Below, piece by piece: positions 10,304 through 55,906 of a stretch of 64,000 bases of DNA (positions within the stretch are counted from its first letter, which is position 1; the number at the start of each line of letters is the position of its first letter). The stretch lies in NCBI GenBank assembly GCA_963778665.1, contig CAVZVG010000005.1:205805-269804 (forward strand), in the 5' to 3' direction. Under the pieces are notes generated by a model, which did not search any database, was not told the DNA's origin, and saw only the letters and a list, made by a program, of their open reading frames with translations. The translations under genes and the position numbers were made by a program. This DNA comes from an uncultured Gammaproteobacteria bacterium (lineage in GTDB: Bacteria; Pseudomonadota; Gammaproteobacteria; JBBQDK01).

Positions 10304-10320
10304 GCACCGAGATGTATAGC

Positions 10321-11169: not shown

Positions 11170-11215
11170 GCGGCAACCCCGGGTAGACTCGGACAGCGGC
11201 GAAGACCGGCTTCAG

Positions 11216-11242
11216 AAAAAAAAGGCGCGCCGAAGCGCGCCT
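11216..11242 (-). terminator. Rho-independent terminator on the minus strand (AAGGCGCGC-TTCG-GCGCGCCTT then T8)
   Basis: GC hairpin followed by a U-run when read on the minus strand, downstream of the degraded gene at 11.3-13.6 kb. Confidence 0.5.
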
Positions 11243-11279
11243 TGGTGGAGCTATGTTAAAAATTACTGAATGACACCAT

Positions 11280-20614: not shown

Positions 20615-20621
20615 AGACAAG

Positions 20622-20715
20622 CCTGGATTGATTGTCGGCCGCAGAGGCAGCAGTGAAACCCGGGTTTCGCTATCGCTCAACCCAGGCTACGTCCTGGATT
20701 GATTGTCGGCCGCAG
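20622..20715. repeat. Half-copy of REP family A (48 bp) flanked by a perfect 23-bp direct repeat CCTGGATTGATTGTCGGCCGCAG
   Basis: Direct repeat at 20622-20644 and 20693-20715 brackets CAGTGAAACCCGGGTTTCGCTATCGCTCAACCCAGGCTAC, 8 nt after the apbE stop. Confidence 0.6.
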
Positions 20716-20760
20716 GGTAAGTTCATTTTATCAATCGCACAAAATAGAATGGCACTGACT

Positions 20761-20836
20761 CAAGCCCTTACCCAAGAATGTAGCCTGGGTTGAACGCAGT
20801 GAAACCCGGGTTTCGCTATCGCTCAACCCAGGCTAC
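20761..20836. repeat. REP/MITE-like element, family A, full copy
   Basis: Near-identical to 10321-10404. Lies in the apbE / DUF3570 convergent intergenic region, 7 nt from the DUF3570 stop. Confidence 0.7.
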
Positions 20837-20842
20837 GTCATC

Positions 20843-21997
20843 CTAAAACCATATCGACAGATACACCTGCACGACATCGGCCGAGAATCCATACAGCGGT
20901 TCCTGACCCGGCGTGCCGCCTTGCGTGACATCGCGGAAATCCCGATAGGAAAACAGCATGTGGTTGTAGGCCATGTTCAAGGTGCTCTTGTTGATGGCCT
21001 TCCATCCAGGGCGCGTGAAGTCGTAACTCAAGCCCATGCCGAAACTCTGCGAACTGAAACTGCTGAGTTCCTTGTCGCGGGCCAGGTAGTTCTGCGCATC
21101 CAGGTACGGGAACAGATCGCTGTAGAAATCGGCCTTGCCCTGGGTGTAATACCGGTAACTGACATCGAGGATCCATTTGTCATGCAGCGGTTGTTTGTAG
21201 CCGATCTCCGCGGTGTGTGCCTTGACGCCCCAGGTGTCGGTATAGTAACGGTACTGTCCCTGCAGCCTGGCGCGATACGGCAGGTAATAGCGCGCGGTGA
21301 CAGCCAGGGCATTGCTGGTGTGGGTCTTGGGGTAGCGTTCCGGCTCGTAGCTGTAACCCTTGCCGCTGCTTGAATCGAGATAGCGCACCGATCGATACGG
21401 GTTATTGAGAAAGCCCTGATCGGTGACCAGTTCGTAACTCGTATCTATCAGCAGATCCTTGGTCAGCACCTGCGACAGTCCCAGCGTGTAGTTCTGGCGA
21501 TCGAGACTGGCGGAGAACGACGGCTGGCCGTTCTTGCCGACGGTGTCCCAACCCCGCGAGTAGCCCATCGATACCGTGGTCATATCGCCGAACAGGCTCT
21601 GGGTCAGGTCGAGGTTGGCGGTGTTGGCTTTGTAATCGCTTTCCGTACTGTTGGTGTAGCCCATGTTGAACGTGGTTTTGGCGTGCAGGTAGCCGAGACT
21701 GATATTTCCCTGGGTGCGCTGTTCGGAATAGGGGCTGGCGGTCGATACCACATCGATGGACGCACTGCTGACCGTGTCGACATAGTAGTTGCCGCTCACA
21801 TCGGCATTCTGCCCGATATGCTTCAGCACCAGCACCGATGGACCGCTGACGGTTACCCCGCCGCCGGAGTAGGAATGATACAAGGCATCGGCACGCTGAT
21901 CCGGCAGCACATCCGCGCCGGCCGGCAGGTGTTCGAGCAACAGACCGACGGCGATCAGCGGCCAGGTCGATTTAATTGCAGCCACAACCACCTCCAT
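20843..21997 (-). CDS. DUF3570-family outer-membrane beta-barrel protein
   Basis: C-terminal ..VQVYLSIWF (aromatic OMP terminus) and alternating beta-strand pattern. The Met at 21997 gives signal peptide MEVVVAAIKSTWPLIAVGLLLEHLPAGA; the ORF track allows an ATG at 22042. Partner of DUF4266, TlpA and ApbE. Confidence 0.6.
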   Translation of the reverse strand: MEVVVAAIKSTWPLIAVGLLLEHLPAGADVLPDQRADALYHSYSGGGVTVSGPSVLVLKHIGQNADVSGNYYVDTVSSASIDVVSTASPYSEQRTQGNISLGYLHAKTTFNMGYTNSTESDYKANTANLDLTQSLFGDMTTVSMGYSRGWDTVGKNGQPSFSASLDRQNYTLGLSQVLTKDLLIDTSYELVTDQGFLNNPYRSVRYLDSSSGKGYSYEPERYPKTHTSNALAVTARYYLPYRARLQGQYRYYTDTWGVKAHTAEIGYKQPLHDKWILDVSYRYYTQGKADFYSDLFPYLDAQNYLARDKELSSFSSQSFGMGLSYDFTRPGWKAINKSTLNMAYNHMLFSYRDFRDVTQGGTPGQEPLYGFSADVVQVYLSIWF

Positions 21998-22196
21998 GCC
22001 CGCCGTCGGCGCCGCGCGCGCCTTCACGCGCTTCGTGCACATGATTGAGATAAGCGGTCGACACCGGATTCGGGTCGGCGCTCATGATCGGGTCCGCCAG
22101 GTGGGCGCGCTCATATGGCTTGACCCACGGCTGGATATTGCCGCAGGCCGTGAGCATCAGGCCGAGCAATATCACCAAATGTGTTCGCAATGGCAT
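21972..22196 (-). CDS. DUF4266-family small lipoprotein
   Basis: MPLRTHLVILLGLMLTAC lipobox; ..PWVKPYERAHLADPIMS..; C-terminal GGGCGCN is typical of DUF4266. ATG sits 3 nt after the tlpA stop. Confidence 0.65.
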   Translation of the reverse strand: MPLRTHLVILLGLMLTACGNIQPWVKPYERAHLADPIMSADPNPVSTAYLNHVHEAREGARGADGGHGGGCGCN

Positions 22197-22198
22197 GA

Positions 22199-22705
22199 TC
22201 ACTCCCGCAACAGTTCGCTGACCTGCTGTTGATAGGTCTGCTCATAACCCGGCATATAACCCTGATGCAGATAGCGCACCTTGCCGTTGCGATCCACCAG
22301 CACGGTACTGGGCATGGCTTCGAGATTGTAGAGTTTGCTGACGACGCTCTGCGGATCGAACAGCACCGGAAAATGCACCGGATGCTCTTTCAGCAATGCC
22401 TGCGCCGCAGTCGTATCCTGCTCGACGTTGACACCGAGAATGGTGAAGCCGAGCTTCTGATAGCGCTGATAAAGCTCATCGAGCAACGGCATCTCCTGAC
22501 GACAAGGCCCGCACCAGGAGGCCCAGAAGTTGACCAGCACCACCTGACCGCGCAACTCGCTGAGCTTGAGATTCTCGCCACTCAGGCTCTTGAGTGTGAA
22601 ATCGGGTGCCGGTGGCGACGGCACAGAAGCCATCGCGCTGCTTACACACGCGGCCAGCAACACTGCACGCAAGGTGCGCGGAAGGAATCGAAAGCGTCTA
22701 TTCAT
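22199..22705 (-). CDS. TlpA-family periplasmic thiol:disulfide oxidoreductase
   Basis: WASWCGPC active site, signal peptide MNRRFRFLPRTLRAVLLAACVSSAMA, GGAG RBS. Confidence 0.8.
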   Translation of the reverse strand: MNRRFRFLPRTLRAVLLAACVSSAMASVPSPPAPDFTLKSLSGENLKLSELRGQVVLVNFWASWCGPCRQEMPLLDELYQRYQKLGFTILGVNVEQDTTAAQALLKEHPVHFPVLFDPQSVVSKLYNLEAMPSTVLVDRNGKVRYLHQGYMPGYEQTYQQQVSELLRE

Positions 22706-22754
22706 AATATTCTCCACATAGAGCACATGACAAAATGGATCTTGCGCTGCACTA

Positions 22755-22818: not shown

Positions 22819-23478
22819 TCAGAAAAACACCGTCATGCCGCCGGTGAATTCCAGATTGTGCGTGGTCTTGCTGGTGCCGAGCAGATCGCTGCTGAAGACG
22901 TGATCGCGTACGTCCGCGTGCAAGGCCAGCCAGTCCGTGGCGAGCAGGCGGTAACCGGTGCCGAAGTTCACCGTGAAGCGGCTGTCGTTGGCGAATTTGG
23001 TGCTGCCGACACCGGCGATCACGTAGAGTGCCGAATTGAAGGCGTGCTTGCTGCCGATGAAGGCCTCGCCCGGCAGCAGGTTGTACCCCAGGGAGATGTT
23101 GTAATAGCTGTAGACACGTTCGGCATCGGTAAGCACACGGGCCGATCCGCTGAGCGTTTCGTAACTGGTCTTGCCGACGGTGCTGCGGCCGTAGGCGCCT
23201 TCGGCGAAGAAGTCCTCGGTGATGTGATAGGCACCGCGCAGGCCGTAGACCGGGTTCGAGCCGAAGTCTTCGACGCTGAGCACGCCGGCATAGGCACCCA
23301 GCTCGAAGTCGGCACTGTCGATATGCGGCGTCGTGATCGTACGCCGCGAAATACCGGGGTCGATGATCGGCTCATCCTGATCATCCGCGGCGAATGTCGC
23401 CGCGCTGCCGAGCGTCACGCAGGCCAGCAGCGCCGCGCCGAATCGCTTCAGAAAAATACCGTGCAGCCAATTTTCCAT
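22819..23478 (-). CDS. Outer-membrane beta-barrel protein (OmpA-like 8-strand barrel family)
   Basis: Signal peptide MENWLHGIFLKRFGAALLACVTLGSAATFA; C-terminal ..EFTGGMTVFF. Overlaps the upstream gene's stop by 31 nt. Confidence 0.6.
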   Translation of the reverse strand: MENWLHGIFLKRFGAALLACVTLGSAATFAADDQDEPIIDPGISRRTITTPHIDSADFELGAYAGVLSVEDFGSNPVYGLRGAYHITEDFFAEGAYGRSTVGKTSYETLSGSARVLTDAERVYSYYNISLGYNLLPGEAFIGSKHAFNSALYVIAGVGSTKFANDSRFTVNFGTGYRLLATDWLALHADVRDHVFSSDLLGTSKTTHNLEFTGGMTVFF

Positions 23479-24185
23479 TCGTTGATCCCCTGATTGCTGT
23501 CTCTGTTTTGATAGACGACATAATTGTTGTACTCGGCGCGCAGCAACAGGCGGCGCGCCAGATAGGTACGCACGCCGACACCGACGTGAGTGGTGCCGTC
23601 CGAGCGGTTCTGACTCTGTACCAGCGTGACCTGCGGGTCGGTTCGTATCACACCGCTGCCCAGCGCGAAGAACGGTGACACGCGCCATTCCGGGAACGGC
23701 TGCGCCACCAGGTTCACATTCAGCATCAGACTATCGGAATATGTCCCCAACACCTGCGACAGAGACAATTCCGTCGCCAGTGTCGGCGTGAAGGCATAAC
23801 CGCCGTAGGCAGTGATCACATGCGCGCCACCGAAACTGCCGCCCAGCACGCCCAGTTCCCAGCGCCGCCGGTTGTAGTCGTCACGGCTCGCATCCGCGAG
23901 GCGCAAGGGCTGACCGGCGGCAAGTTGCGTCTGCTCGATCTGCTTGCGTGTCACCCAACCCTGCTTGCCGCGTGCGGTGCGCACCTTGAACCAGTCGGTC
24001 TTGCGCAGCAGTATCTCTATCCATTCACCCCGCTCCGCCACATAGAAAATCGGATAGCCGCGTCCCGGTCCGGTATGCAGTTCGACATATGGTGCACGCA
24101 CCTCGACACGCAACGCTTCCTTGCCCTGCGCGAGCGGCACAACCAACCAGGCCAGCAACAGCCAGATGAGTACAGGCTTGCGCAC
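23448..24185 (-). CDS. SH3-domain plus outer-membrane beta-barrel fusion protein
   Basis: Bacterial SH3-like segment (ALRVEVRAPYVELHTGPGRGYPIFYVAERGEWIEILLRKTDWFKVRTARGKQGWV) then a barrel ending ..KIGCTVFF. A GTG start overlapping the upstream TAG (TAGTG) gives signal peptide MRKPVLIWLLLAWLVVPLAQG; the alternative ATG is at 24242. Confidence 0.6.
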   Translation of the reverse strand: MRKPVLIWLLLAWLVVPLAQGKEALRVEVRAPYVELHTGPGRGYPIFYVAERGEWIEILLRKTDWFKVRTARGKQGWVTRKQIEQTQLAAGQPLRLADASRDDYNRRRWELGVLGGSFGGAHVITAYGGYAFTPTLATELSLSQVLGTYSDSLMLNVNLVAQPFPEWRVSPFFALGSGVIRTDPQVTLVQSQNRSDGTTHVGVGVRTYLARRLLLRAEYNNYVVYQNRDSNQGINEWKIGCTVFF

Positions 24186-26818
24186 TAGTTGAGCGGCGCC
24201 GCAAACGGGTCGTTGTAATACTGCGCGCCGATGTCCAGCCATTCGGATATCAGGCGCAGTTCCGCCGGATTCAGCCAGCCCGCGTGCGTGCCGCCGCTGG
24301 CGAACTCGGCGAAGAAGCGACTCGAAGCGCGCGCCCCCGCCGTCGACATCGCAGGCGTCACCGGCACGGTGACCATGATCGGGATCGGCTGGTTGTTCAC
24401 ATCCAGCACCTGGTTGCCATTGGCATCGAGCAGGAACAGTGGATTGCCGTTGGCATCGGTGGCCTGGACCAGTTGATCCTGTAGCACGCCACCGACAAGT
24501 TCCTGCGCGTTGTCGGCGGCCAGCAACTCCTGGTAGGACTTCAGACGATCCGCCTGTTGGTCGGACTGACCGTCACTGAGATCAAGCTGCGCGGCGGGTA
24601 CCTGCGCCGCGCCGTTCAAATCCACATTGTTGTGACAATTGGTGCAGGTGTGATTGGCGATTTCCACCCCGTTGCCGTCCAGCACCGGACGAGGCGTACT
24701 CCAGAGCGGATGGATGTGCTGCGGATAATGTATGACGATGCGGCACAGGCTGTTCCACAGGATCTGGCAATTGGGCGTGGTCGGCGCGGGCGTGGTCAGG
24801 TCGCTATAGCGATAGCTGAAGTCGGCATCCTTGGCACGCAGCGCCGGATCGGTCCAGACATCGTCGAAGTTGATCTCGACGCTGGGCAGCAGTGCATTCG
24901 GTGTGAGGCGTGTGCGCGTCTCGGCCATGGTCTCGCCGTAATCGGCGAACATGGCAGGATCCGTGTCGGGGAAAGGCAGTCCGGTGGTGGGCGCGCCGGC
25001 ATTGATCGAGGTCGCGACGGCATCGGCCCGACCGTGCGCGGGCGGTGTCGCGGCACCGGTGTTGTGCTGATGGCAGCCGCTGCAGGTCTGCGTTTCGCCG
25101 GCACGCAGCTGCAGCCAGTTCGAGTGCCGCGCACCGATGCGCCGACCTTCGCTGTCGAGCACTTCGAGTTCGAAGGCGACATTGGCAGGCACTTCGATCT
25201 TCACCGAGCCGTCGGGTTCGATAGGCGCATAACCCAGTATCTCGCGCATCGACTGCTGACTGCTGGCGCCGAAGGCCGTGGCCTTGAAATCGCGCACCGT
25301 CTTATCCGGTATGCTGACGGCCTTCACCAGGCGCAGGAAACGCGCCGGACGCTGCGCCGCCGTGGTCTTGGCGGGATCGGCAAGATCGGCGAGTGATGTG
25401 ATGTTGGCGGCAGACGTGCAGTCACTGAGGAAGCAACCATTGAACGTGCCGGTGCCGAAATCGTAGACACTGCGGATATCCAGCACGCCGACGTTGTCCG
25501 CTATCAGACCCGCGTCGAGACCATTGCCGGCGATGCCGTCATACAACAGCGTCGGTCGCGGGCGCGGTTGCGCGACGATCACATCGGTATAGATCACGCC
25601 TTCCTGCGGCGCGACCACCGGCAGTTGCGTATCGCCGGCACGGTTATAAATGAAGATGCCATACAGTGGCGGCGCTTCCTGGACGTTTTGCGCGGCGAGA
25701 CCTTGCGCGGTGCAGGGCACGATATTGCCGTTTTCGATCAGACGACAGGCACTCCAGCTGACCAGCATGCGATCGGAGCCATCCCAGAGCGGATCGGCGG
25801 CACTGTATCGTCCGCCGGGCGAGGGACCGACGGCGGTCTGCACCGCATTGACTATCGCGCGGGTCTGCGCGGGCCCTGTCAGCACGTTCCGGCTCGTCCA
25901 GACCGGTCTATCGTTGTCGACATAGTCGGTCGTATCGATGAGCGTCAGATCGCCGCCCTGGTCGGTGCCGGTGAAGGGACGCGTGATCGTCAACAGGCGA
26001 CCGTCGGGATAAAGCCGCGGACGCAGGAACTGCACCGTATCGCCGGCACTGCCGGTGGCATGGCTGTGAGCGCCGTACAGCACCTGCATGTCCGTGCCAT
26101 CCGGGCGCACAGTATAGAGATTCATGGCATTGCTGGTGCCCATGTGATCCCAGCGGCTGAACAGCACCCGACCGTCACTGAGCAGCGTGGGATCGAGATC
26201 ATTGCTCTGGTTGAACGTGATCTGATGCATGTCGCTGCCGTCGCCGTTCATGACATGCAGTACCAGCGCCGCTTGCTGACGGTTTTCGTTCAGGGCGGCG
26301 AACTGCGGCTTGCCTTCATCGAGCAGTACGGCGCGTGACTGCCGTTGGCGCGTGGATGAAAAAACGATACGCCCATCGGCGAGGTAATGCGGCGCGACAT
26401 CATCGCCTTCTTTGGCGATGATGTCGGAGCTGATCAGACGGTGCAGTTGCCGGCTGACAGTATCGTACTCCCAGATATTCCATTTGGTCTGATCGGCGGG
26501 AGTCGCGCCGGTTATTTCCGGTTCGTGCAGCGCGAACAGCAGCGTCTTGCCGTCGTACGAGGCAGTGACATCCTTCACATCGCCAAGTCCTTGCGTCACG
26601 GTCGCGGTGACATTGCGCTCCGCCGCGCTGGGTGACGCGTAATCGCGATAATACAGATCGCCGCCGGGCGACATGGCCAGGGGATCGCGCGCATCTTCCT
26701 GTTGATCTGCTATCAAAGGACGCTTCACATAGGCAATGCCGACATCGGCGACGATCGGATCGGGCGCCTGACTGCCGCCACCGCAGCCGGTGAGATGCAA
26801 CAACAGACACGCCAACAT
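24185..26818 (-). CDS. Lipoprotein with a TolB/WD40-like beta-propeller region and two c-type haem-binding motifs
   Basis: Lipobox MLACLLLHLTGC. PD40-like repeats (..GRIVFSSTRQRQSRA.., ..GRVLFSRWDHMG..). CSGCHQHN and CTNCHNNV CxxCH motifs. 877 aa. Confidence 0.65.
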   Translation of the reverse strand: MLACLLLHLTGCGGGSQAPDPIVADVGIAYVKRPLIADQQEDARDPLAMSPGGDLYYRDYASPSAAERNVTATVTQGLGDVKDVTASYDGKTLLFALHEPEITGATPADQTKWNIWEYDTVSRQLHRLISSDIIAKEGDDVAPHYLADGRIVFSSTRQRQSRAVLLDEGKPQFAALNENRQQAALVLHVMNGDGSDMHQITFNQSNDLDPTLLSDGRVLFSRWDHMGTSNAMNLYTVRPDGTDMQVLYGAHSHATGSAGDTVQFLRPRLYPDGRLLTITRPFTGTDQGGDLTLIDTTDYVDNDRPVWTSRNVLTGPAQTRAIVNAVQTAVGPSPGGRYSAADPLWDGSDRMLVSWSACRLIENGNIVPCTAQGLAAQNVQEAPPLYGIFIYNRAGDTQLPVVAPQEGVIYTDVIVAQPRPRPTLLYDGIAGNGLDAGLIADNVGVLDIRSVYDFGTGTFNGCFLSDCTSAANITSLADLADPAKTTAAQRPARFLRLVKAVSIPDKTVRDFKATAFGASSQQSMREILGYAPIEPDGSVKIEVPANVAFELEVLDSEGRRIGARHSNWLQLRAGETQTCSGCHQHNTGAATPPAHGRADAVATSINAGAPTTGLPFPDTDPAMFADYGETMAETRTRLTPNALLPSVEINFDDVWTDPALRAKDADFSYRYSDLTTPAPTTPNCQILWNSLCRIVIHYPQHIHPLWSTPRPVLDGNGVEIANHTCTNCHNNVDLNGAAQVPAAQLDLSDGQSDQQADRLKSYQELLAADNAQELVGGVLQDQLVQATDANGNPLFLLDANGNQVLDVNNQPIPIMVTVPVTPAMSTAGARASSRFFAEFASGGTHAGWLNPAELRLISEWLDIGAQYYNDPFAAPLN

Positions 26819-27159
26819 GCCGCGCAGAACGTGGCAGGGCGTGGTCGATCCGTTGGCAGTGACATTCAGAATACGCACCTACACACATCCATCCATTGTC
26901 TGTCGCTGGGATTGCATTATCGTTTGACAGTGATTTCACGATCTGACGACGTGATCACAAAAATGTCAGGAAAAGTTTGCAGAATGGTCACCACAGAGTC
27001 GGGCAACATGCAGGGACGGAAAAGATGCCGGTTATCGGGGACAGCATTGATGATGACACACCGATCTGTGCAGGACGCGCAACAACACTCTATGCGATGT
27101 CCGGATCGACAGACCGCAACCGGCACTCAAACGACAGGCAACAGAAGGGGAAACAGCCA

Positions 27160-28377
27160 ATGACGGTCAGCGTGAAACATCGCGATTCAACGCGGTTGCG
27201 TCTGGTGATCCGGGCTTTGCTCGCAGGCTGCCTGCTTCTCGGCGTCACCGACGCGGCCATGGCCGGCGCCCGCGAACAGGCCAAGCGTCTGCATGACCGG
27301 CTCACCGGCGTACCGCCGAGCGCCACGGTATTGGATACGATGCAGGCGGACATCAGCGGTGGCGATCCATTATCGGCCGCCTATCTGGCCATGGACAACA
27401 GTGCCTTTTACAACGTGACGCTGAAGGACTTCGTCACGCCCTGGACCAATCGCGATCAGACCGTGTTCGCGCCGCTCAACGACTACACCGCCACCGTGAT
27501 CGGCATGGTGCGCGACGATGTGGACTTCAGGAAAGTGCTGTACGACGACATCCTCTATGTCGGCGCGGGCAACCTCGGCCTGCCGGCCTATGCCATGACC
27601 AACAACGATCTTTATGACGCCATGGAAACACAGGGCATCGATCTCAAAACCAATCTGGTCGCCACCACGCAATCGGCCAAGACCGATCTGCCGGCGGCTG
27701 CCACCGCCGGCATCATGACCACGCGCGCCGCCGCACAGGCCTTCTTCATTGCCGGCACCAACCGCGCCATGCTGCGCTTCACTTTCATCAATTACCTCTG
27801 CACCGATCTGGAACAGTTGAAGGACATAACCCGTTCGCCGGACCGCATCCGTCAGGATGTTTCGCGCAGTCCGGGCGGCGACAGCCGGATCTTTCTCAAC
27901 TCCTGCGTCGGTTGCCATGCCGGCATGGACCCGATGGCGCAGGCCTATGCCTATTACAACTACGACGCCCCCAGCGCACGACTGGTCTACAACGGCGTAT
28001 CGGCCATCGACCCCAGCACCGGCACGCGCGTGCAGGCCAAGTACCATATCAACTCGGATAATTTCAAATACGGCTACGTGACGCCCGACGATCGCTGGGA
28101 CAACTACTGGCGCAGCGGCCCCGACGCCCTGCTCGGCTGGGACAGCACGCTGCCCGGCGGCGGCAATGGCGCGAAATCCCTGGGGCAGGAATTGGCGAAC
28201 ACCGAGGCCTTCGCGCAATGCCAGGTCAAGAAGGTCTTCAAGACCGTCTGCCTGCGACCGCCGGGCAACGCGGCCGATCGCAATCAGATCGACACCATGG
28301 TCACCTCGTTCAAATCGAACGGCTATCACTTGAAACGCACGTTCGCCGAGGCGGCCGTGTATTGCATGGGTGATTGA
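27160..28377 (+). CDS. Secreted mono-haem cytochrome c-type protein of unknown family; possibly a planctomycete-type PSCyt-like domain
   Basis: Signal peptide MTVSVKHRDSTRLRLVIRALLAGCLLLGVTDAAMA; single CVGCH motif; 406 aa. RBS AAGGGG. Divergent from the beta-propeller gene. Confidence 0.6.
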   Translation: MTVSVKHRDSTRLRLVIRALLAGCLLLGVTDAAMAGAREQAKRLHDRLTGVPPSATVLDTMQADISGGDPLSAAYLAMDNSAFYNVTLKDFVTPWTNRDQTVFAPLNDYTATVIGMVRDDVDFRKVLYDDILYVGAGNLGLPAYAMTNNDLYDAMETQGIDLKTNLVATTQSAKTDLPAAATAGIMTTRAAAQAFFIAGTNRAMLRFTFINYLCTDLEQLKDITRSPDRIRQDVSRSPGGDSRIFLNSCVGCHAGMDPMAQAYAYYNYDAPSARLVYNGVSAIDPSTGTRVQAKYHINSDNFKYGYVTPDDRWDNYWRSGPDALLGWDSTLPGGGNGAKSLGQELANTEAFAQCQVKKVFKTVCLRPPGNAADRNQIDTMVTSFKSNGYHLKRTFAEAAVYCMGD

Positions 28378-28433
28378 GTGTCATTGCCAAGACATGGACA
28401 CACGGCGTCCGCTACAGACTGTGGAGAGGCATC

Positions 28434-30928
28434 ATGAACGACACGCGCAAGTCGGTTGTTGCTATGCATAACATGTCGCCTCATCGCGGTACGGCCTGGA
28501 CATACTTGCTGGCGGCACTTGTGCTGCTCGGCCTGTCGGGTTGCGGTGGCGGCAGCACCACGCAGAACCCCAACACCAGCGGCCCGCAGGCGCTGGACTA
28601 TACGGGGCCGGCGGCAAGCACGGCCGATGTGCAGGCCTTCAAACTCAATGTCTGGGACAATCTGCGCGCGACCAACCGCTGCGGCGCCTGTCACGGTGCC
28701 GGCGGCCAGGCACCCAACTTCGTGCGTCAGGACGATGTCAATCTGGCCTATGCCGCGGCGAACCCGCTGGTCGATCTGAGCTCGCCGGCCGATTCGCGCA
28801 TGGTGGTCAAGGTATCCGGCGGTCACAACTGCTGGCTGGCGAGTTCCGCGGCGTGCGGCGCGGTGCTCACCGCCTACATCAGCGCCTGGGCCGGTGGTTC
28901 GGTCGGCGGTCCTGCCCAGCAGATTCAACTGGTGGCGCCACCGATCAAGGATGCCGGCGCCAGCAAATCCTTCCCGGCCGATCCCAGCCTGTTCGCCAGC
29001 ACGGTGCATCCTCTGCTCATGGCACATTGCGCCGGCTGTCACACCGATACCTCGGCGACACCGCAGGCGCCGTTCTTCGCGGTCAGCGATGCCGCGAGCG
29101 CGTATGACGCCGTGACATCCAGTCACAAGATCGATCTGGACACACCGGCCAATTCACGGCTGGTCGTGCGTCTGCGCGACGAGTTTCACAACTGCTGGAG
29201 CGATTGCCAGAGCAATGCCGACGAGATGCTCGCCGCGATCACCAGCTTTGCCAACGGCGTACCGGTCACCGCGGTCGATCCGTCGCTGGTGATCAGCAAG
29301 GCCCTGAAGCTGACCGACGGCATCATCGCCAGCGGCGGCAGCCGCAACGTCGCCAATGTCATCGCGCTGTACGAATTCAAGACCGGCACGGGCAGCACCG
29401 CCTACGACACCAGCGGCGTGGAACCGGCACTGAATCTGACATTGTGCGGCGACGTCGGCTGGGTGAACGGCTGGGGCATCGATATCCGCAACGGCAAGGC
29501 ACAGGGCACGACCGCGGCGAGCAGCAAGCTCAGCAAACTGATCAAGGCCACCGGCGAATACACGATCGAAGCCTGGGTGGTGCCGGCCAATGTCACGCAG
29601 GAAGGACCGGCGCGCATCATCAGCTATTCGGGCGGCACCACGACGCGTAACTTCACGCTCGGACAGACGCTCTACAACTACGATTTTCTGCAACGCAGCA
29701 GCAACTCCGACGGCAACGGCGAACCGGCTTTGTCGACCGCCGATGCCGCGGAACGCCTGCAGGCCACGCAGCAGCATGTGGTCGTGACCTATACCCGACG
29801 CAAGGCCGGCGCATCTACGTCAATGGCGTGGATACCGGCGATCAGGATCCGCTGGCCGGCGGCAGCCTGGCGGACTGGGACGACAGTTTCGCCTTCGTGC
29901 TCGGCAACGAAGTCTCCGGCGACCGTCTCTGGCAAGGCAAGCTGCGCATGGTGGCGATTCACAACCGCGCCCTGACGCCGGAGCAGATCCTGCAGAATTA
30001 CAAGGCCGGCGTCGGCGAGAAATACTATCTGCTGTTCGATGTCAGCGCGCTGGTAAACCTGCCGCAGAGCTACATCATGTTCGAGGTCAGTCAATTCGAC
30101 AACTACAGCTATCTGTTCCTCAAGCCGACCTTCATCAGTCTCGATCCCAGCGTCACGCCCGGCAACATCCCGCTGCGCGGCCTGCGTATCGGCATCAACG
30201 GCAAACTGGCCAAGGTCGGCCAGAGCTACAGCGAGCTCGATACCGCAATCACCGCCGCACAATACAGCAGCAGCGGGCAGCTGTTGTCGGACCTCGGCGC
30301 GGTGATCGCCAGCGAGAAAGGCGCCGATGCGGACGAGTTCTTCCTGGACTTCGAGTCACTCAACGGTCACGACAACGTCATCACGGAACCCGCGCCGCTG
30401 CAACCGCCGCCGCCTGCCGACAGCGCGCCGGTCGCCGACATCGGTGTGCGCACCTTCGACGCGATCAACGCGACCATGGCGGCACTGACCGGCGTCAGCC
30501 CGAACGAAAGCAACGTGAAGACCACCTTCGACACCATCAAGCAGCAACTGCCCACAGTGACGAACATCGAAGGCTTCGTGTCCGCGCATCAGGTCGCGGT
30601 CGCCCAGCTGGCCATCGAGTATTGCAACGCGCTCGGCGATGACACCACGTTGCGCGCCGCTTACTTCCCGTCACTGGACTTCAGCGCGAGTGCCGCCAGC
30701 GCGTTTGCCGACAGCACCGGTCGCAACCTGCTCATCGATCCCCTGCTGAGCCGGATGCTGGGCAGCAACATCGCCACGCAACCCGACAGCACGGCGGTGC
30801 GTACCGAACTCGACAACCTGATCGTGAAACTCACGCCGTGCACCGGGTCGTGCGGTACTCGTACAGTCACGATCACCAAGGCGGCCTGCGCGGCGACCCT
30901 GGGCAGCGCCGCGATGCTGGTGCAATGA
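28434..30928 (+). CDS. Lipoprotein with two CxxCH motifs, a LamG (concanavalin-like) domain and a C-terminal domain; apparent frameshift near 29810
   Basis: Lipobox LLGLSGC. CGACHGAGG and CAGCHTDTS. The LamG domain (..EAWVVPANVTQEGPARIISYSGG..YTRRKAG) continues in the next frame as RIYVNGVDTGDQDP..WQGKLRMVAIHNRALTPEQI. The shift lies in a GGCCGGCGC run. Combined product is about 830 aa. Confidence 0.6.
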
Positions 30929-30946
30929 GCACTGTTATATCCAATG

Positions 30947-30980
30947 TAGGTTGGGCTGAGCGCAGCGAAGCCCAACAACC
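30947..30980. repeat. Diverged REP-like palindrome GTAGGTTGGGCTGAGCGCAGCGAAGCCCAACAACC
   Basis: Inverted repeat GTTGGGCT/AGCCCAAC, 19 nt after the stop of the LamG lipoprotein gene; variant of family A. Confidence 0.5.
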
Positions 30981-31001
30981 GTGGCACACGAGGAAATACT
31001 T

Positions 31002-32605
31002 ATGGTGAGCAAACGCAGACCCCTGTTGCCGGACGAGCCCTTGCTGCACGCGCATCACAAGCGCCCCGTCACGCGCCGCGATTTTCTGGCGCAGGGCTTG
31101 CGGGCTGGCATCGGCATGGCTACTCGCGCCATCGATCTTCGGCCTGTTCGCCGATCCGCGCGCCGCGCAGGCCGCGCTGTCATCGGACCTGCAGGCCTTG
31201 AAGACATCCTGCGGTATCGCCGTGGCGGGCGCCGGCAAGATTCCGTTCATCTGTTTCGATCTGGCCGGCGGCGGCAACATCTCCGGCTCCAATGTACTGG
31301 TCGGCAAGCAAGGCGGTCAGCTGGATTTTCTCAGCACGGCCGGCTACAGCAAGCTGGGCCTGCCCGGCGACATGGTGCCGTCCATCGTCAATCCACTCAC
31401 CGCCAGCAATGATTTCATCGACAGCAGTCTGGGGCTCGCGTTTCATTCCGACAGTGCCTTTGCGCGCGGCATACTGGAACGCGTCTCGCCGGGCACGGCC
31501 GCGAACATCAACGGCGCGGTGCTGCCGGCGCGCTCCGACAACGACACCAGCAACAATCCCCACAACCCCATGTACGGCATCAACAAGGCCGGCGCCGACG
31601 GTGAACTGCTGACATTGATCGGTTCGCAGAACTCCGATTCGGGCGGCAACTCGATGGCACCGGCCGACATGATCAATCCCAAGGTACGGCCCACCAAGAT
31701 CGACCGGCCCAGCGATGTCACCGGCCTGGTCGATACCGGCAAGCTGGTCGGCTTGTTGAGCCAGCAGGATGCCGTCGCGGTCATGGAATCCATCGAGCGC
31801 ATCAGCGCCATGAAACTCGGCAAGGTCGATACCAAGATCAGCGACCGATGCGGTGGTGAAGGATCTGGTGCAATGCGGTTACGTGAAGTCCGCCGATCTG
31901 GTGGACCGTTACGGCGATCCCGACGACACTCAATCCTTCCATCGATGCCCGCATCGTCGGCAGCAGTGGCATCTTCACGCAGGCCGAGTTCGACGGCGAC
32001 AGCCGAATTCCGCAAAACCGCCTCGATCATGAAACTGGTGACCAATGGCTTCGCCGGCGCCGGCACCGTCAGCATGGGCGGCTTCGACTATCACACCGGC
32101 GACCGCTCCACCGGCGAACTGCGCGATCTTGCGCGCCGGTCGCTGCATCGGCGCCTGCCTGGAATACGCGGCACGCGTCGGCGTACCGCTGATGGTCTAT
32201 GTGTTCAGCGACGGTTCACTGGCCAGCAACGGCATGGTCGATAACTCCGTCGATGGCCGCGGCAAGGGCGTGTGGACCGGCGACAACTCCGATACCGCCG
32301 CGTCGTTCTTTCTGGTGTACAACCCCACGGGCCGGCCGACATTGCTCGGCGGCACGTCGAGCGCCAGGCCATGCATCAGCAGATCGGCTGGTTCCGCAGC
32401 CGACGGTTCGGTGGAAACCGCCAGCAGCCCCGCGGCCAACAACGTCAACCTGCTCGCCGAAACCGTCGTACTGAATTACATGGCACTGCACGGCGAACAG
32501 GGCAACTTCGCCAGCCTGTTCCCCGGCAACGGTCTGGGCAGCCCTACTCTCCTGGACAGCCTTACCGCCTTTCAACCCATCGTCAACGGGACTATCGGAG
32601 CATGA
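31002..32605 (+). pseudogene. DUF1501-like (sulfatase-superfamily) Tat-secreted protein gene, broken by three or more frameshifts
   Basis: Twin-arginine signal MVSKRRPLLPDEPLLHAHHKRPVTRRDFLAQGLRAGIGMA with GAGGAAA RBS. DUF1501-like blocks (..IPFICFDLAGGGNISGSNVLVG.., ..MGGFDYHTGDRSTGEL..) are spread over three frames (ORFs 30981.., 31198.., 32045..). Confidence 0.5.
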
Positions 32606-32766: not shown

Positions 32767-33276
32767 ATGGCGTGGGCGATTGTCAGTCTGCTGCTTCTGT
32801 TACCCGTGTCCGTGTCTGCCGCCGACACACCCGCCGCCATCGACGAACAAGTGCAATCCCTGAAATCGGAAGTGCTGAACCTGAACCGCGATCTGTTCGT
32901 GCTGGAGGAGGAACTGCTGTATCCGTCCAGCACCCAGGTGGCGGTATTCCTGTCGCTGGATGTCGGCACCTTCTTCAAGTTCGATTCGGCGCAAGTCAAG
33001 ATCGACGACAAGATCGTCGCCAACTATCTGTACACCGCGCGTGAACTGGAGGCCTTGCGCCGTGGCGGCGTGCATCGCATCTACATGGGCAACCTGAGCA
33101 GCGGCAAACATGAGCTGGTGGCCTTGTTCACCGGTCAGGGGCCCAATCAGCGCGATTACCGGCGCGGCGCCACACTCAACTTCGACAAGAGCGTCGGTCC
33201 GAAATACATCGAACTGAAGATCGTCGACAAGGAAGGCAAGCAGCAGCCGGATTTCCAGATCAGGGAATGGGAATAG
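32767..33276 (+). CDS. Secreted coiled-coil hypothetical protein; possibly DUF3450-like TonB-system accessory
   Basis: Signal peptide MAWAIVSLLLLLPVSVSA; heptad-like IDEQVQSLKSEVLNLNRDLFVLEEELL. Its stop overlaps the next gene's ATG. Confidence 0.5.
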   Translation: MAWAIVSLLLLLPVSVSAADTPAAIDEQVQSLKSEVLNLNRDLFVLEEELLYPSSTQVAVFLSLDVGTFFKFDSAQVKIDDKIVANYLYTARELEALRRGGVHRIYMGNLSSGKHELVALFTGQGPNQRDYRRGATLNFDKSVGPKYIELKIVDKEGKQQPDFQIREWE

Positions 33277-35150
33277 TGCGGCGGAAATTTCGACTCCGCG
33301 CCGACTGTCTGCTGTACCTCGCACTGACGCTACTCGGCGGGACGGCTGCAGCAGCGGACCAGGCCCCGCCCCGTCAGGTCCTCGACCTGCACTACGGCGA
33401 GGTGCTGTTCTATTTCTATCAGGGCGATTATTTCGACGCGATCACCCGTGCCTTGAGCGCACAGCAACAACGGCAAGTCCCGCACCACCAGCAGGACACG
33501 GCCCTGCTGACCGGTGGCATGGAACTGTCTTACGGCATGGATCGCGCGGCACAAAAGGCATTCGACGACCTGCTCGATGCCAAGGTCGCCGAGCCGGTGC
33601 GCAACCGCGCCTGGTTCTATCTCGCCAAGCTGAGTTACCAGCGCGACAATCTTGCCCAGGCGCAGCAAGCCTTGGCACACATCGATGGCGCACTGCCCGA
33701 ATCGATTGCACCGCAACAATCCTTGCTGCGCGCCCAGGTACTGATGGCGCAGGGACACTATGATCAGGCCGCCGCCTTGCTGGATGGCTGGAAGGGGCCG
33801 ACCGACTGGCAGGCCTATGCACGCTTCAATCTCGGCGTGGCCCTGCTGCGCAGCGGCAAAGCCGCGCAGGGTGAGCGACAGCTCGATACAGTCGGTCAAC
33901 TGAGCAGCGACAGCGAAGAACTGCTGGCCTTGCGCGACAAGGCCAACCTGGCGCTGGGTTATACCTTGTTGCAACAAAAAGACGCCGCGCGCGCCCGGCA
34001 ATACCTGGAACGCGTGCGCTTGCAGGGCCCGTTTTCCAATCAGGCCCTGCTGGCCTTCGGCTGGGCGGCGTCCGCACAAGGCCAGCAGCAACAGGCGCTG
34101 GTGCCCTGGCAGGAATTGAGCGGGCGCACCGTCATCGACAGCGCGGTGCAGGAGGGACTGCTCGCGGTGCCCTATGCCTACGCGCAATTGCAGGCCTACC
34201 CTGCCGCGGCGCAGCACTATCAGCAGGCCATCAGTGCTTATGAAAACGAGATGCGCAATCTCGATGCCGCGATCGCCACGATCCGGCAGGGTAAACTGCT
34301 CGACACCATGCTCGGCACCGCACAGGACACTGCCGACATGGGTTGGTCATGGCGCGCCGCGCCGCCACCGCAGACGACGGAGACACAGTATCTCTGGCAA
34401 CTGCTGGCCGGTCATGAATTTCAGGCGGCCCTGAAAAACTACCGCGATCTGCGGTTTCTGCAACACAATCTGACGCACTGGTCGACCAGCATCGATGCCT
34501 ATCAGGATATGCTGAACGGCCGCGAAGCGCGCTATCGGCAACAACTGCCGCAGGTCCGCGCACGCATGCAGTCACTGGACCTGAATGCTCTGATCACGCA
34601 ACGCGACGCGCTGGCTGCACGCCTGGCAGACAGCGAACGCGACCGCAATACCCTGGCACTCGCAACCCGGCAGGAACTCGACTGGCAGGCGCGGATGACG
34701 CGCATCGCGCAACGCCTCGATCGCCTGGACAACACGCCGGAAACCGCCGCATTGCGCGAGCGTCTGCGGATCTTGCAAGGTGTGCGGATCTGGCGCCAGA
34801 ACGCCGATTACAGCGCACGTCTCTGGCAGGCGCGTCAATCACTGCGCAGTCTCGACGCCGCCATCGCCACATTGCGGCAACGCTGGGCCTCACTGCAAAC
34901 CGCGCAACAGCAGGCCCCGCACGGCTTCGAGGGGTACGCGCAACGCATCACCGCGCTGCGTGCGCGCATCGCCGCATTACAACCGCGCATCGCCGCCGCC
35001 AGCGCCGCGCAGTCCCGGCAATTGCAGACACTGGCAATAACGGCACTGGAAGGCCATAAGAAACATCTGGCGGAATATCGTGTGCAGGCCCAACTGGCAC
35101 TGGCACAGATCTATGATCGCGCCAGCAGCGCACCCGGAGCGACACCATGA
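33267..35150 (+). CDS. Secreted TPR-repeat protein
   Basis: 627 aa, signal peptide, multiple TPR-like Ala/Leu/Gln-rich helical repeats. Overlaps both neighbours, so translationally coupled. Confidence 0.6.
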   Translation: MGIVRRKFRLRADCLLYLALTLLGGTAAAADQAPPRQVLDLHYGEVLFYFYQGDYFDAITRALSAQQQRQVPHHQQDTALLTGGMELSYGMDRAAQKAFDDLLDAKVAEPVRNRAWFYLAKLSYQRDNLAQAQQALAHIDGALPESIAPQQSLLRAQVLMAQGHYDQAAALLDGWKGPTDWQAYARFNLGVALLRSGKAAQGERQLDTVGQLSSDSEELLALRDKANLALGYTLLQQKDAARARQYLERVRLQGPFSNQALLAFGWAASAQGQQQQALVPWQELSGRTVIDSAVQEGLLAVPYAYAQLQAYPAAAQHYQQAISAYENEMRNLDAAIATIRQGKLLDTMLGTAQDTADMGWSWRAAPPPQTTETQYLWQLLAGHEFQAALKNYRDLRFLQHNLTHWSTSIDAYQDMLNGREARYRQQLPQVRARMQSLDLNALITQRDALAARLADSERDRNTLALATRQELDWQARMTRIAQRLDRLDNTPETAALRERLRILQGVRIWRQNADYSARLWQARQSLRSLDAAIATLRQRWASLQTAQQQAPHGFEGYAQRITALRARIAALQPRIAAASAAQSRQLQTLAITALEGHKKHLAEYRVQAQLALAQIYDRASSAPGATP

Positions 35151-37943
35151 AGCACCATGCCGGCCTATGGGCCTGTCTGATGCTGCCCTTGGCGGCCTGC
35201 TCGGTGCTGGACAAACCCGATGCGCCGACGCTCAGGTCCCTGGAATCGCGTCACATCGATGTGACCCGTGACACCACACTGTCCGCGACACGCGGACAGG
35301 CTCAGCAGGCGTATCAGGCGTTCCTCAAGGCGGCGCCGGACAGCGCGCAGCGTGGTGAGGCCTTGCGGCGGCTGGCGGACATCACACTCGAAGACGGTAG
35401 CACCCCGGATGCACAACCGGCCGTGGCGAACGCCTCCGGCACAAGCGCGGATGCCGACCACGCCGTGACGGCGATTCATTTGTACGAACAGGTGCTGGCC
35501 GTCAAACCGGATGCCCCGGACAATGACCGTGTGCTGTATCAGCTGGCGCGCGCCTATGAACAGAGCGGTCGTCTGCCCGATACGCTGCGCACACTGGAGC
35601 GCCTGGTGGCGGACTACCCGGCTTCCTCCTATCGTGCCGAGGCGCAGTTCCGGCGCGGCGAGATTCTGTTCGTGCAGAAACAGTATGCGGCGGCGCAACA
35701 AGCCTATCAGGCCGTGCTCGATGCCGGCGCGGGGCCATTCTATTCCCGCGCACTGTACAAACGCGGCTGGGCCTGTTTCAAACTGTCCGACAATGACGGT
35801 GCGCTCGATTCCTTTCTGGCCTTTCTCGATCACACGCTGGGGAAAGGTCAGGCACCCGCCGCGCTGTCGCGCGGCGAACAGGAATTGCTGGAAGATACGC
35901 TGCGCGCGGTGAGCCTGACACTGTCTTACGAGGAACGTCCGCAGGCTATCGCCGAACTGTTCGCCCGCAAGGGCACGCGGCCTTATGAATACCTGGTATA
36001 CCAGCACCTCGGCGATCTCTATCTCGGCAAGGAGCGTTACACCGATGCGGCGTCGATCTATCACGACTATGCCATCGGCCACGACAGCGATGCGCGCGCG
36101 CCGCAGTTTCAGATCCAGGCCATCGACGCCTATCGCAAGGGCAAGCTGAATGCACTGGTACTGGCCGGCAAACAGGAATATGTGCAGCATTACGCGCTGG
36201 ACGGCGCCTGGTGGCGAACCCGCAAACCCGAATCACAACCGGCGGCGCTGAATTATCTGCAGGAGAGTCTGGTGGATCTCGCCGCGTATTATCATGCGCA
36301 GGCGCAGAGCAAACATGACAATGCCGATTATCAGCAGGCGGCGCAGTGGTACCGCCAGTTCCTGAATGAGCTTCCCCAAGGATGCACGCGCGCCGCATTT
36401 GAATTTCCTGCTCGCGGAGTTGCTCAACGAGACACATCAATATCCGCAGGCGGTGCAGGAATATCTGCATACCGCCTATGACTACGGTGATCATCCGCAG
36501 GCCGCCGAGGCGGGCTACGCGGCACTGCTCGCCGCGCGCCAGTATCGCACGCAGTTGAATGGCGCGGCGCGCGCGCAATGGGATCGGGACAGCATCGACA
36601 TGGCACTGCGCTTCGCCGACCATTTCCCCAAACACCCGCAGGCGGCCGCCGTGCAGAGCAAGGCCGCCGAAGAACTGTACGCGGCGCATGACCTGTCGCG
36701 CGCCGCGACCACGGCGCAGGCCGTGCTGGCACGCACGCCGGCGGCGGATGCCGCACTGCGCCGCACCGCCTCGATCGTGCTCGGCCACGTGCAGTTCGAG
36801 CATGGCGCGTTCGCCGAGGCCGAGAGTGCCTATCGGAATGCCCTGGCATTGACGGCAGCGAGCGATCCGGAACGCGCCACCCTCACGGCACGACTCGCCG
36901 CCACGCTCTACAAGCAAGGCGCTCAACTGCGCAGCAGCGGCAAACCGGTCGAGGCGGCAGCCAAACTGCTGACCGTCGCGCAGATAGCACCCGGCAGCGC
37001 AACGGCTGCCAGCGCCGATTACGATGCCGCGGCCGCGCTGCTGGAAGCACACGACTGGAACGGTGCGGCACGGGTATTGGAACATTTCCGCAAAACCTAT
37101 CCGAAGCATCCCTTGCAAGGCGAAGTCACGCGCAAACTGGCGGCGGCATACAGCGCGTCCGGGCAAGCGGGGCGCGCGGCGATCGAACTGGAAACGGTGA
37201 GTCGCACCGCGCCGGATGCGCAATTGCAGCAACAGGCCCTCTGGGAGGCAGCACAGATGTACGAAAAGGCGCAACAACCCGAGCAGGCGGCCAGCGCTTA
37301 CCGCCAATACCTGCAACGCTTCCCGAAACCGCTGACCCAGCGGCTGGAAGCACACCGCTGGCTGGCGCAGCGCGCCGCGAAATCAGGCGATACGGTACAG
37401 CAACGGCATTGGCTGCAGGCATTGATCGATGCCGAGCGTGCCGGTGGCACGGAGCGCAGCGACACCACCGCACGCTACGCCGCCCTCGCCGCCCTGACCC
37501 TGGCACAGCCGGCGCAGGCCGAATACACGCATATCGCCCTGAAGGCGCCGCTGAGCAGGAACCTGAAACGCAAGAAGGACGCGATGCAGACGGCACTGAA
37601 GGCCTATGAAACCGCCGCGCAATACGGTGTCGCGGAAGTGACGACACAGGCGACCTATGCCATCGCCGAGCTGTATCGCGATTTCGGCCGCGCGCTCATG
37701 GAATCCGAGCGTCCCGCCAATCTGTCGGCGCTGGAGCGTGCGCAATACGACGCGCTGGTGGAAGAACAGGCCTTCCCGTTCGAGGAGAAGTCCATCGCCA
37801 TTCACGAAACCAATGTTAAACGTACGACCGAAGGTGTCTATGATCAATGGGTACAAAAGAGCTTCACACGGCTGGCCGAACTGGTACCGGCAAAATATGG
37901 CAGGCAGGAACACGGTGCGGAGGCGGTCGATGCATTACCGTAA
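35147..37943 (+). CDS. TPR-repeat lipoprotein (about 930 aa), interrupted by an apparent frameshift near 36375 in a CCCC run
   Basis: Lipobox MLPLAACS. The frame of 35147 ends in garbage after ..WYRQFLNEL; protein-like sequence resumes in the frame of 36366 (..KDARAPHLNFLLAELLNETHQYPQAVQEY..). Confidence 0.6.
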
Positions 37944-38523
37944 TCTGATCGGCGCGATGATCGCCGCGCTCTGGCTGGCCGGCTGCGCGACAACACCGGC
38001 GCCTCGACAGACGCCAAATACCGGTATGGCGCGTCCCGCCGACCCGCAATTCGATCAGGCGTTGGGACTGATGCACACCCGGCATTATTCCCAAGCCATC
38101 CCGCTGCTGGAAGCCGTATCAAGATCGCAGCCGGACCTGCAGCTGGTCGAATTGAACCTGGCCATCGCGCAGGCCCGCAGCGGTCACGACGCGCAGGCCG
38201 AACCCTTGTTGCGGCAGGTGCTGGCGCAGAATCCCGCCAATGCCGTGGCCTGGAATGAACTGGGCATGTTGCAACGACGCGCGGGACATTTCGATAAGGC
38301 ACGCCTGGCCTATGAGCAGGCGCTCTCCACGAACGCTTCCTATGCCGACGCGGAACTCAATCTGGCGATTCTCTATGACCTGTACCTGCAACAACCGGCA
38401 CAGGCCATACCGCACTACCGGCGCTATCAGTCGCTGGCCGCGACGCCCGACAAGCGCGTCACTTTGTGGATCGCGGAGCTGAGCAAGACGATGCCGGTGG
38501 CGAAGGGAGATAAGCAACCATGA
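37930..38523 (+). CDS. Small TPR-repeat lipoprotein
   Basis: MHYRNLIGAMIAALWLAGC lipobox; TPR-like repeats (..AVAWNELGMLQRRAGHFDKARLAYEQAL..). The ATG is embedded in the upstream gene's 3' end. Confidence 0.6.
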   Translation: MHYRNLIGAMIAALWLAGCATTPAPRQTPNTGMARPADPQFDQALGLMHTRHYSQAIPLLEAVSRSQPDLQLVELNLAIAQARSGHDAQAEPLLRQVLAQNPANAVAWNELGMLQRRAGHFDKARLAYEQALSTNASYADAELNLAILYDLYLQQPAQAIPHYRRYQSLAATPDKRVTLWIAELSKTMPVAKGDKQP

Positions 38524-40111: not shown

Positions 40112-40114
40112 GGC

Positions 40115-40603: not shown

Positions 40604-40604
40604 C

Positions 40605-53579: not shown

Positions 53580-53592
53580 GGGAAATGCGCTC

Positions 53593-55883: not shown

Positions 55884-55906
55884 GTTCACATCCTCTCGCA
55901 GTCACT

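Follow-up and report, generated by a model that had tools for sequence, protein, structure and literature searches.

A widespread gammaproteobacterial envelope cluster that joins predicted c-type cytochromes to a Tat-exported protein of predicted alkaline-phosphatase-superfamily fold

The closest described counterparts of the locus reported here are haem proteins of Planctomycetes and Verrucomicrobia. PSCyt2-type genes cluster with DUF1501 and PSCyt3-type genes with DUF1552, and the function of these pairs is reported as unknown (He et al. 2017, bioRxiv 10.1101/150078). A second group, comprising ApbE, DUF3570, a thioredoxin-like protein and DUF4266, is treated as an extracytosolic electron-transfer module in which DUF3570 is flavinylated by ApbE, and its function is left open by that survey (Meheust et al. 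2021, eLife, PMC8238504). A third is formed by homologues of hydrazine synthase (HZS), for which a 2025 survey reports no experimentally characterised homologue outside anammox (PMC12758564). Here, we describe a 64,000-nucleotide stretch of DNA from an uncultured Gammaproteobacteria bacterium (lineage JBBQDK01; assembly GCA_963778665.1, contig CAVZVG010000005.1, positions 205,805 to 269,804), hereafter the window, in which relatives of these so far separately discussed groups are joined in one cluster: a PSD/PSCyt-like haem protein with a partner exported by the twin-arginine translocation (Tat) pathway and of predicted alkaline-phosphatase (AP) fold, an HZS-alpha-like non-anammox cytochrome, and a DUF3570 module. 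The genes at its centre are A (mono-haem protein), B (di-haem LamG lipoprotein) and C (Tat-exported protein), and the two haem genes indeed lie upstream of the Tat gene, as a preliminary description of this DNA had it. On balance, we consider it probable that A, B and C form a conserved, redox-linked unit of the cell envelope, distantly analogous to the planctomycete pairs, and that the frameshifts in this copy are artefactual.

The window carries an ordinary copy of a widespread gammaproteobacterial envelope cluster. Cluster loci of the C family were confirmed in at least 585 cases in GTDB species genomes, and every named one, among the matches listed, is gammaproteobacterial; the proteobacterial context to which attention had been drawn is thus not unusual. 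The listed hosts are Sedimenticola, Chromatiaceae, Thiodiazotropha, Alteromonas, Paraglaciecola, Microbulbifer, Colwellia, Pseudoalteromonas, Steroidobacteraceae, Kangiellaceae and Woeseiaceae; among these matches, Sedimenticola is nearest to the window (79%), and identity between families is 70–79%. In the 81 loci compared, nine genes recur wherever enough flanking sequence is present. One strand encodes DUF3570, DUF4266, a TlpA-like thioredoxin, an outer-membrane protein (OMP) barrel, an SH3-domain OMP and the HZS-alpha-like di-haem lipoprotein, and the other encodes A, B and C. Per 81 loci, A was found in 71, B in 75–81, the HZS-alpha-like protein and the thioredoxin in 69 each, DUF4266 and both OMPs in 68, and DUF3570 in 61, nearly all misses being loci that are cut short. 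In 25 of them, an ApbE homologue is encoded no more than 10 kb from gene C. The linkage of A, B and C is invariant in ~70 loci, and about one-third of the loci, the window included, continue with gene D, three TPR proteins and an ExbB-ExbD-ExbD-TonB set. The GC content of the A-B-C segment is 62–64%, rather than the 65% first given, and matches that of the flanks.

Remote relatives of C occur in a different arrangement, in which an A-like mono-haem protein is followed by a ~215-aa protein resembling the C-terminal domain of B, a C-like protein and a haem protein resembling the B N-terminus. These loci (L082 at 5901–13730, L086 at 2–3794, L087 at 2–3463 and the contig of P0224) derive from one 34%-GC contig, two other contigs and a fourth contig with gene calls only. 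Judged by sequence, gammaproteobacterial B is a fusion of two proteins that flank C elsewhere, with the LamG domain inserted between the parts. Because the parts of B are separate and yet lie beside C in distant lineages, A, B and C behave as a single unit of inheritance, and a fusion of this Rosetta-stone type points to a functional linkage among them. Scanning the A-like and B-like proteins of these remote loci with Pfam yielded no further evidence of PSCyt or PSD domains.

Gene C begins with a twin-arginine motif, MVSKRR...TRRDFLAQG (the window reads TRRDFLAQGLRAGIG), and then runs through all three reading frames. R25 and R26 are invariant in 58 diverse family members (30–57% identical) drawn from 1505 family clusters in a search of 1.84 billion representatives. 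After frameshift correction, the protein matches its best relative, the intact 532-aa metagenomic protein P0001, over its full length (491/532 identical, 92%), which chance does not explain, and intact relatives of 525–538 aa are recovered over 100% of the length. The family is large, with more than 8000 clusters at 90% identity. PF07394 (DUF1501), PF07586 (DUF1552) and other models of the alkaline-phosphatase clan found no match in the gene C fragments, the corrected 534-aa protein (E ≤ 10) or the 58 relatives (E ≤ 0.1), and no DUF1501 sequence turned up in the 1.6 Mb of loci that were fetched. A sequence-profile search of PDB chains likewise gave no match to the C family even at an E-value of 10. 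An AlphaFold model built from the 58 diverse representatives nevertheless predicts a fold of the alkaline-phosphatase/sulfatase superfamily, with hydrolases such as sulfatases, PhoK, NPP and PafA as the nearest folds; 25 close homologues alone gave a pLDDT of 36.7. The “DUF1501-like” label originally attached to gene C therefore holds for the Tat signal and the predicted fold class but, judged by HMM, not for family membership.

Compared with S1 sulfatases, NPP, PhoK/PafA and EptC, C is only 5–14% identical, lacks the sulfatase CxPxR motif, and has more than half of its 532 residues outside the shared superfamily core. Residues invariant in the family comprise the RR pair, G89-G90, D181, D361-Y-H363, D402-G403, D426, Q459 and N490, and T182 and D/E86 are also conserved. 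D86, D181-T182, D361-x-H363 and D402 may constitute an AP-type site, their equivalence to the canonical positions being putative. C also carries the motif GGFDYH, which resembles the GGWDxH motif of DUF1501. These features suggest that C represents a separate, Tat-exported AP-fold family without a Pfam model, not close to any characterised phosphatase or sulfatase family. Several C-family records in NCBI and UniRef (P0009, P0020, P0022, P0088 and others) bear the name ‘general secretion pathway protein GspF’, which looks like a propagated misannotation.

The product of gene A is 100% identical to database protein P0271. Its match to PSD2/DUF1585 (20.9 bits, E = 2.9e-4) falls under the Pfam cut-off of 25.8, and the matches of its orthologues are weak but consistent: PSD2 in 27 of 30 (best 7e-6) and PSCyt3 in 12 of 30 (best 0.013). 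Many relatives carry a precomputed PF07624 assignment, and some have the source name ‘DUF1585 domain-containing protein’. With a CxxCH that is invariant across orthologues, A appears to be a distant relative of the DUF1585/PSD2 (and PSCyt3) haem proteins, probably a distant homologue rather than a member.

The product of gene B combines a tandem pair of CxxCH...HNCW modules with a LamG domain and, at its C-terminus, a conserved domain. Its haem-binding motifs, CGACH at residue 83 and CAGCH at residue 199, are invariant in orthologues. Laminin_G_3 (PF13385), one of the models proposed for checking this locus, is matched in both fragments of the frame-split gene (29.6 bits in the open reading frame (ORF) 28374–29975 and 26.9 bits in ORF 29828–30928; cut-off 27.6) and in all 30 intact orthologues of 812–848 aa (best E = 2e-24). 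Apart from weak generic cytochrome matches, it is the only Pfam match of the window fragments. The other proposed models fared differently: PSCyt2/DUF1549 (PF07583) and PSD1/DUF1553 (PF07587) have no match in the 30 intact orthologues, and PSCyt1 (PF07635) matches one of the 30, at an E-value of 0.058. By its domain content, B is not a planctomycete-style PSCyt cytochrome, so that the description of the haem proteins as planctomycete-style survives, weakly, for A only. Given their CxxCH motifs (one in A, two in B and two in the HZS-alpha-like protein) and their signal or lipoprotein leaders, all three are predicted c-type cytochromes. An NCBIfam scan gave no meaningful match to A, B or C, and a search of PDB sequences with the three family profiles returned nothing useful.

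Two planctomycete arrangements can be compared with this locus. Like the pairing of PSCyt3/PSD (DUF1585/1587/1588/1592/1595) with DUF1552 in Planctomycetes and Verrucomicrobia, it places a PSD2-bearing (weakly PSCyt3) haem c protein beside a protein with a Tat signal; however, A is short and holds only the C-terminal PSCyt3/PSD2-like part, C lacks PF07586, the locus has in addition a di-haem LamG lipoprotein and a redox cluster of nine to ten genes, and its hosts are gammaproteobacterial. Like the pairing of PSCyt2/DUF1549-DUF1553 with DUF1501, in which some haem proteins carry carbohydrate-binding or LamG-type domains, it places a Tat-exported partner of the AP/sulfatase superfamily beside haem proteins; yet neither the window nor its relatives match PF07394, PF07583 or PF07587, and the likeness consists of the fold class and a D-x-H motif. 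Since PSCyt3 goes with DUF1552 and the signal sits in A, the analogy is with the PSCyt3/DUF1552 pair, and it runs through A rather than B. We therefore describe the A-B-C system as a probable distant proteobacterial analogue of the PSCyt/PSD and DUF1552/DUF1501 pairs, not as a member of them.

Table 1. Features of the cluster and its surroundings (window coordinates).
Feature	Position	Strand	Basis and remarks
ApbE (FAD:protein FMN transferase)	19604–20614	+	Pfam, 281 bits
DUF3570	20843–22042	-	Pfam, 147.6 bits; C-terminus ...SIWF
DUF4266 small lipoprotein	21972–22202	-	Pfam, 77.6 bits; tail ...GGGCGCN, C-terminal CGC (CXC)
TlpA-like periplasmic thioredoxin, CGPC motif	22199–22726	-	Pfam Redoxin/AhpC-TSA/Thioredoxin_8; 113 bits
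Outer-membrane beta-barrel protein	22822–23490	-	Pfam OMP_b-brl; 68 related loci
SH3-domain and outer-membrane beta-barrel protein	23448–24242	-	Pfam SH3_3, SH3_4, OMP_b-brl; 68 related loci
HZS-alpha-like lipoprotein, beta-propeller region; divergent from gene A	24185–26878	-	Pfam HZS_alpha 59.4 bits, PD40; 69 loci
Gene A, secreted mono-haem protein	27160–28377	+	405 aa, intact; CVGCH at residue 249; signal peptide
Gene B, di-haem LamG lipoprotein	28434–30928	+	Lipobox LLGLSGC; one 1-nt deletion near 29791
Gene C, Tat-exported protein, ~532 aa, predicted alkaline-phosphatase-superfamily fold	31002–32605	+	No Pfam model; seven single-base indels
Indel cluster within gene C	31125–32398	+	DNA alignment to intact L084 and L085 genes
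Gene D, small secreted protein; opens accompanying module	32767–33276	+	Homologues in 32 loci; no Pfam match
Gene E, TPR and coiled-coil protein	33267–35150	+	Pfam TPR
Gene F, TPR and coiled-coil protein	35174–37943	+	Pfam TPR
Gene G, TPR and coiled-coil protein	37954–38523	+	Pfam TPR
ExbB, ExbD, ExbD, TonB-like	38931–41579	+	Pfam MotA_ExbB, ExbD (two); synteny

The copy in the window is interrupted by frameshifts. Gene C holds six single-base insertions (near 31125, 31843, 31923, 32003, 32129 and 32398) and one single-base deletion (near 32364), which makes seven where three or more had initially been counted. These frame changes were found by frameshift-aware protein-to-DNA alignment against P0001 and resolved by DNA alignment against L084 (JGI) and L085 (Logan), two independent metagenomic contigs with an intact gene C. 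In gene B, frameshift-aware alignment gives a single deletion, in agreement with the one frameshift originally described for the LamG gene. In the TPR gene F, one nucleotide is inserted at ~36365, where the ATG opening its second half follows directly after a TGA; in the relatives L002–L004, F is one ORF of 933–945 aa. A codon-usage Viterbi analysis flagged many further frame switches, most of which are ordinary gene boundaries according to Pfam or synteny.

The preliminary description had left it open whether the pair was decaying or the assembly error-prone, and the latter fits the data better. All eight frameshifts of B and C very probably stem from indel errors made locally in a long-read assembly rather than from decay, and the source organism probably has intact B and C genes. 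Corrected gene C has no in-frame stop codon and no mismatch at any of 172 near-invariant family columns (family mean 0.53, maximum 4). Against L084, its dN/dS is 0.138, with 42, 15 and 97 substitutions at the three codon positions, and its intact neighbours have comparable values (0.125 for the C-terminus of B, 0.17 for D and 0.19 for E). Together with the 6:1 ratio of insertions to deletions and the presence of just two of the seven indels in homopolymers, these results argue for artefacts. The indels in gene C also lie close to GATC sites (median 9 nt, all seven within 22 nt, compared with 49 nt for random positions; P ~ 0.02), a weak hint of methylation-associated base-calling error; GATC occurs in the window at 7.1 per kb, twice the expectation from base composition.

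Genuine pseudogenisation of C, and perhaps of B and F, would mean that the cluster is being lost in the source organism through very recent inactivation, and we regard this as unlikely. Seven frameshifts in one gene and one each in two neighbours would fit such a loss, and two more disrupted genes could indicate a pseudogene-accumulating genome. Both of these lie in a low-GC patch (~49–50%) at 6–8.7 kb. An Lcl_C/DUF1566 gene with a PEP-CTERM tail at 6410–7061 (+) is split between frames, with profile positions 4–49 in ORF 6410–6916 and positions 66–116 plus the PEP-CTERM in ORF 6678–7061. A sulfotransferase fragment at 7663–8263 (+) matches only positions 133–214 of the Sulfotransfer_1 profile, in ORF 7892–8263; its N-terminal portion is probably in a different frame (ORF 7663–7875), and the gene is disrupted or truncated. 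The occurrence of frame-split genes elsewhere in the window equally makes the quality of the assembly suspect. P0271, the database protein identical to A, is encoded on an NCBI/ENA contig of 665,525 bp, and such a length suggests that long reads were assembled. The selective record of corrected C, with its intact reading, its conserved columns and a dN/dS at or below the range of the intact neighbours, speaks against inactivation. Base substitutions are several-fold commoner than indels in bacterial mutation spectra, and seven neutral indels should bring tens of unconstrained substitutions; in the absence of relaxed selection, an indel rate near the substitution rate would be needed. The excess of insertions opposes the deletional bias that bacterial pseudogenes reportedly have, the scarcity of indels in homopolymers also counts against decay, and the rest of the cluster is intact (the HZS-alpha-like protein, A, D, E, DUF3570, the thioredoxin and the OMPs), as are ~20 other window genes examined. 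For annotation, B, C and F are accordingly best treated as intact genes broken by assembly indels.

The DUF3570 protein of the window has the SIWF-like ending typical of outer-membrane barrels. Genes for ApbE, DUF3570, the thioredoxin-like protein and DUF4266 are all clustered at 19604–22726, and DUF4266 has a CXC tail, as in the known module (PMC8238504). The window differs from that module in its DUF3570, which has SSAS and STAS in place of [ST]GA[ST]; orthologues conserve SSAS..DV..(S/T)xASPY. The available portion of the same study does not describe a link of the DUF3570 module to HZS-alpha-like, LamG-haem or Tat-exported AP-fold proteins. A search for [ST]GA[ST] in every cluster protein found no conserved copy, the TGAT of the window HZS-alpha-like protein not being shared by its orthologues. 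No DsbD turned up in the set of window ORFs scanned with Pfam.

The HZS-alpha-like protein shares with anammox HZS-alpha the HZS_alpha middle domain, beta-propeller repeats and two CxxCH motifs, here in a gene divergent from A. Its likely start is the methionine at ~26818, and it has a lipobox (LTGC) with CSGCH at residue 599 and CTNCH at residue 745. Unlike the anammox protein, it matches hydrazine_alpha (NCBIfam NF052339) only in part, at 48.9 bits against an equivalog cut-off of 800 bits, and only the middle domain passes Pfam; the cluster contains no hydrazine synthase beta-gamma partner, and none of the hosts is an anammox bacterium.

A mechanism for the unit can be proposed, although its specifics are tentative. 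C would be a metal-dependent catalytic subunit that is folded and loaded with metal in the cytoplasm, which would account for its export through Tat. Its substrate may be an anionic ester or an oxyanion, handled at the candidate Thr/Asp/His site (D86, D181-T182, D361-x-H363 and D402), in which T182 is probably the nucleophile. B would anchor the unit to a membrane through its lipid and serve as a haem subunit, with the LamG domain presenting the substrate, and A and the HZS-alpha-like protein may be further haem carriers. By way of their haems, A, B and the HZS-alpha-like protein would connect the chemistry of C to a chain running from the thioredoxin to DUF4266, through its CXC, and on to flavinylated DUF3570 at the outer membrane. 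A stronger version seems rather unlikely: A-B-C, the HZS-alpha-like protein and the thioredoxin/DUF4266/DUF3570-FMN chain might together constitute a previously unrecognised redox enzyme of the outer envelope, in which AP-fold C is redox-coupled and not a simple hydrolase. In such an enzyme, C could, for example, oxidise or reduce a phosphorus, sulfur or other oxyanion ester, with the electrons passing through the c-haems. Were this so, the cluster would offer a tractable proteobacterial counterpart of the planctomycete PSCyt and DUF1501/DUF1552 pairs, and work in Alteromonas, Microbulbifer or Pseudoalteromonas would show what those very large families do.

Several points weigh against the reading of A-B-C as a redox-linked unit with artefactual frameshifts. 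Seven indels in 1.3 kb far exceed the background elsewhere in the window (~one per 15 kb), so a local cause, such as low coverage or a methylation motif, is needed. No independent copy from the same species was found: exact look-ups of window protein A, the thioredoxin and P0271 returned no record, and a metagenome scan with a pattern spanning a gene C indel re-found only L084. The window DUF3570 has no exact copy of the [ST]GA[ST] flavinylation motif, which is also lacking in 19 of 22 orthologues, and flavinylation of this variant-motif subfamily is predicted by family only. Electron transfer among the cluster proteins is deduced from co-occurrence, and the functions proposed for A, B and C, like the putative AP-type site, derive from sequence and model. 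Finally, DUF3570 and HZS-alpha genes are not nearby in the remote loci; A, B and C would therefore form the core, to which the redox module may have been added in particular lineages.

Alternatively, C could be a stand-alone, nutrient-scavenging phosphatase, phosphodiesterase or sulfatase, with neighbouring haem proteins that are unrelated to it. The hydrolytic nature of the nearest folds would suit such a role, and in Alteromonas sp. M12, PhoR/PhoB, a PstS-like binding protein and a TonB-dependent receptor are encoded just downstream. We find this distinctly unlikely, because the linkage of A, B and C persists through gene fission and rearrangement in distant lineages, which points to a physical or functional unit. 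In addition, the promoter region shows no enrichment of Pho boxes (mean best mismatch 6.09, compared with 6.39 in shuffles), and C has little identity to any characterised hydrolase family. Horizontal import of a planctomycete-type PSCyt(DUF1549/DUF1553) and DUF1501 pair is highly improbable: the Tat signal and AP-superfamily fold of C, the haem genes directly upstream and the motif likeness to DUF1501 would suit it, but PF07394, PF07583 and PF07587 are missing from the window proteins and from the 58 C and 30 B relatives, an outcome that the preliminary description had itself named as refuting, the GC content is like that of the flanks, and the cluster is vertically widespread rather than a recent import.

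The window offers nothing surprising about the source genome itself, but the cluster is a good and tractable entry point both to PSCyt/DUF1501-type systems and to the DUF3570 module. A, B and C have no solved or characterised relative. The cluster comprises nine to ten genes and is found in hundreds of Gammaproteobacteria from marine and sediment settings, culturable genera among them; if its components work together, these would be tractable hosts for a question that dates back to the first planctomycete genome.

The promoter region between the HZS-alpha-like gene and gene A is divergent, and sites of the Fur, PhoB, FNR, NsrR and OxyR type are not enriched there over shuffles. A CRP-like palindrome (TGTGA-N6-TCACA, at most one mismatch) is present in 15 of 70 divergent promoters (L002–L081), whereas 200 shuffles give an expectation of 1.0 and never more than 4. 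The window promoter (26813–27255) lacks the palindrome, its best match having three mismatches. Scans of the window for Rfam families and for tRNAs found none.

Elsewhere in the window, a [NiFe] hydrogenase operon of the HynS-Isp1-Isp2-HynL type and genes for HypF, HypD, HypB, HypA, HypC, HupH and a maturation protease occupy 57717–62990 (+) and 51249–56570 (-), and all of these hydrogenase and maturation genes appear intact. The regions 1–5778 and 9827–10303 encode the C-terminus of HemN, an SCP2 protein (UbiT-like), two U32 peptidases (UbiU/UbiV-like), a radical-SAM protein, a nitronate monooxygenase and a DsrE-like protein. As a set, these genes suggest a facultatively anaerobic, sulfur-oxidising gammaproteobacterium.

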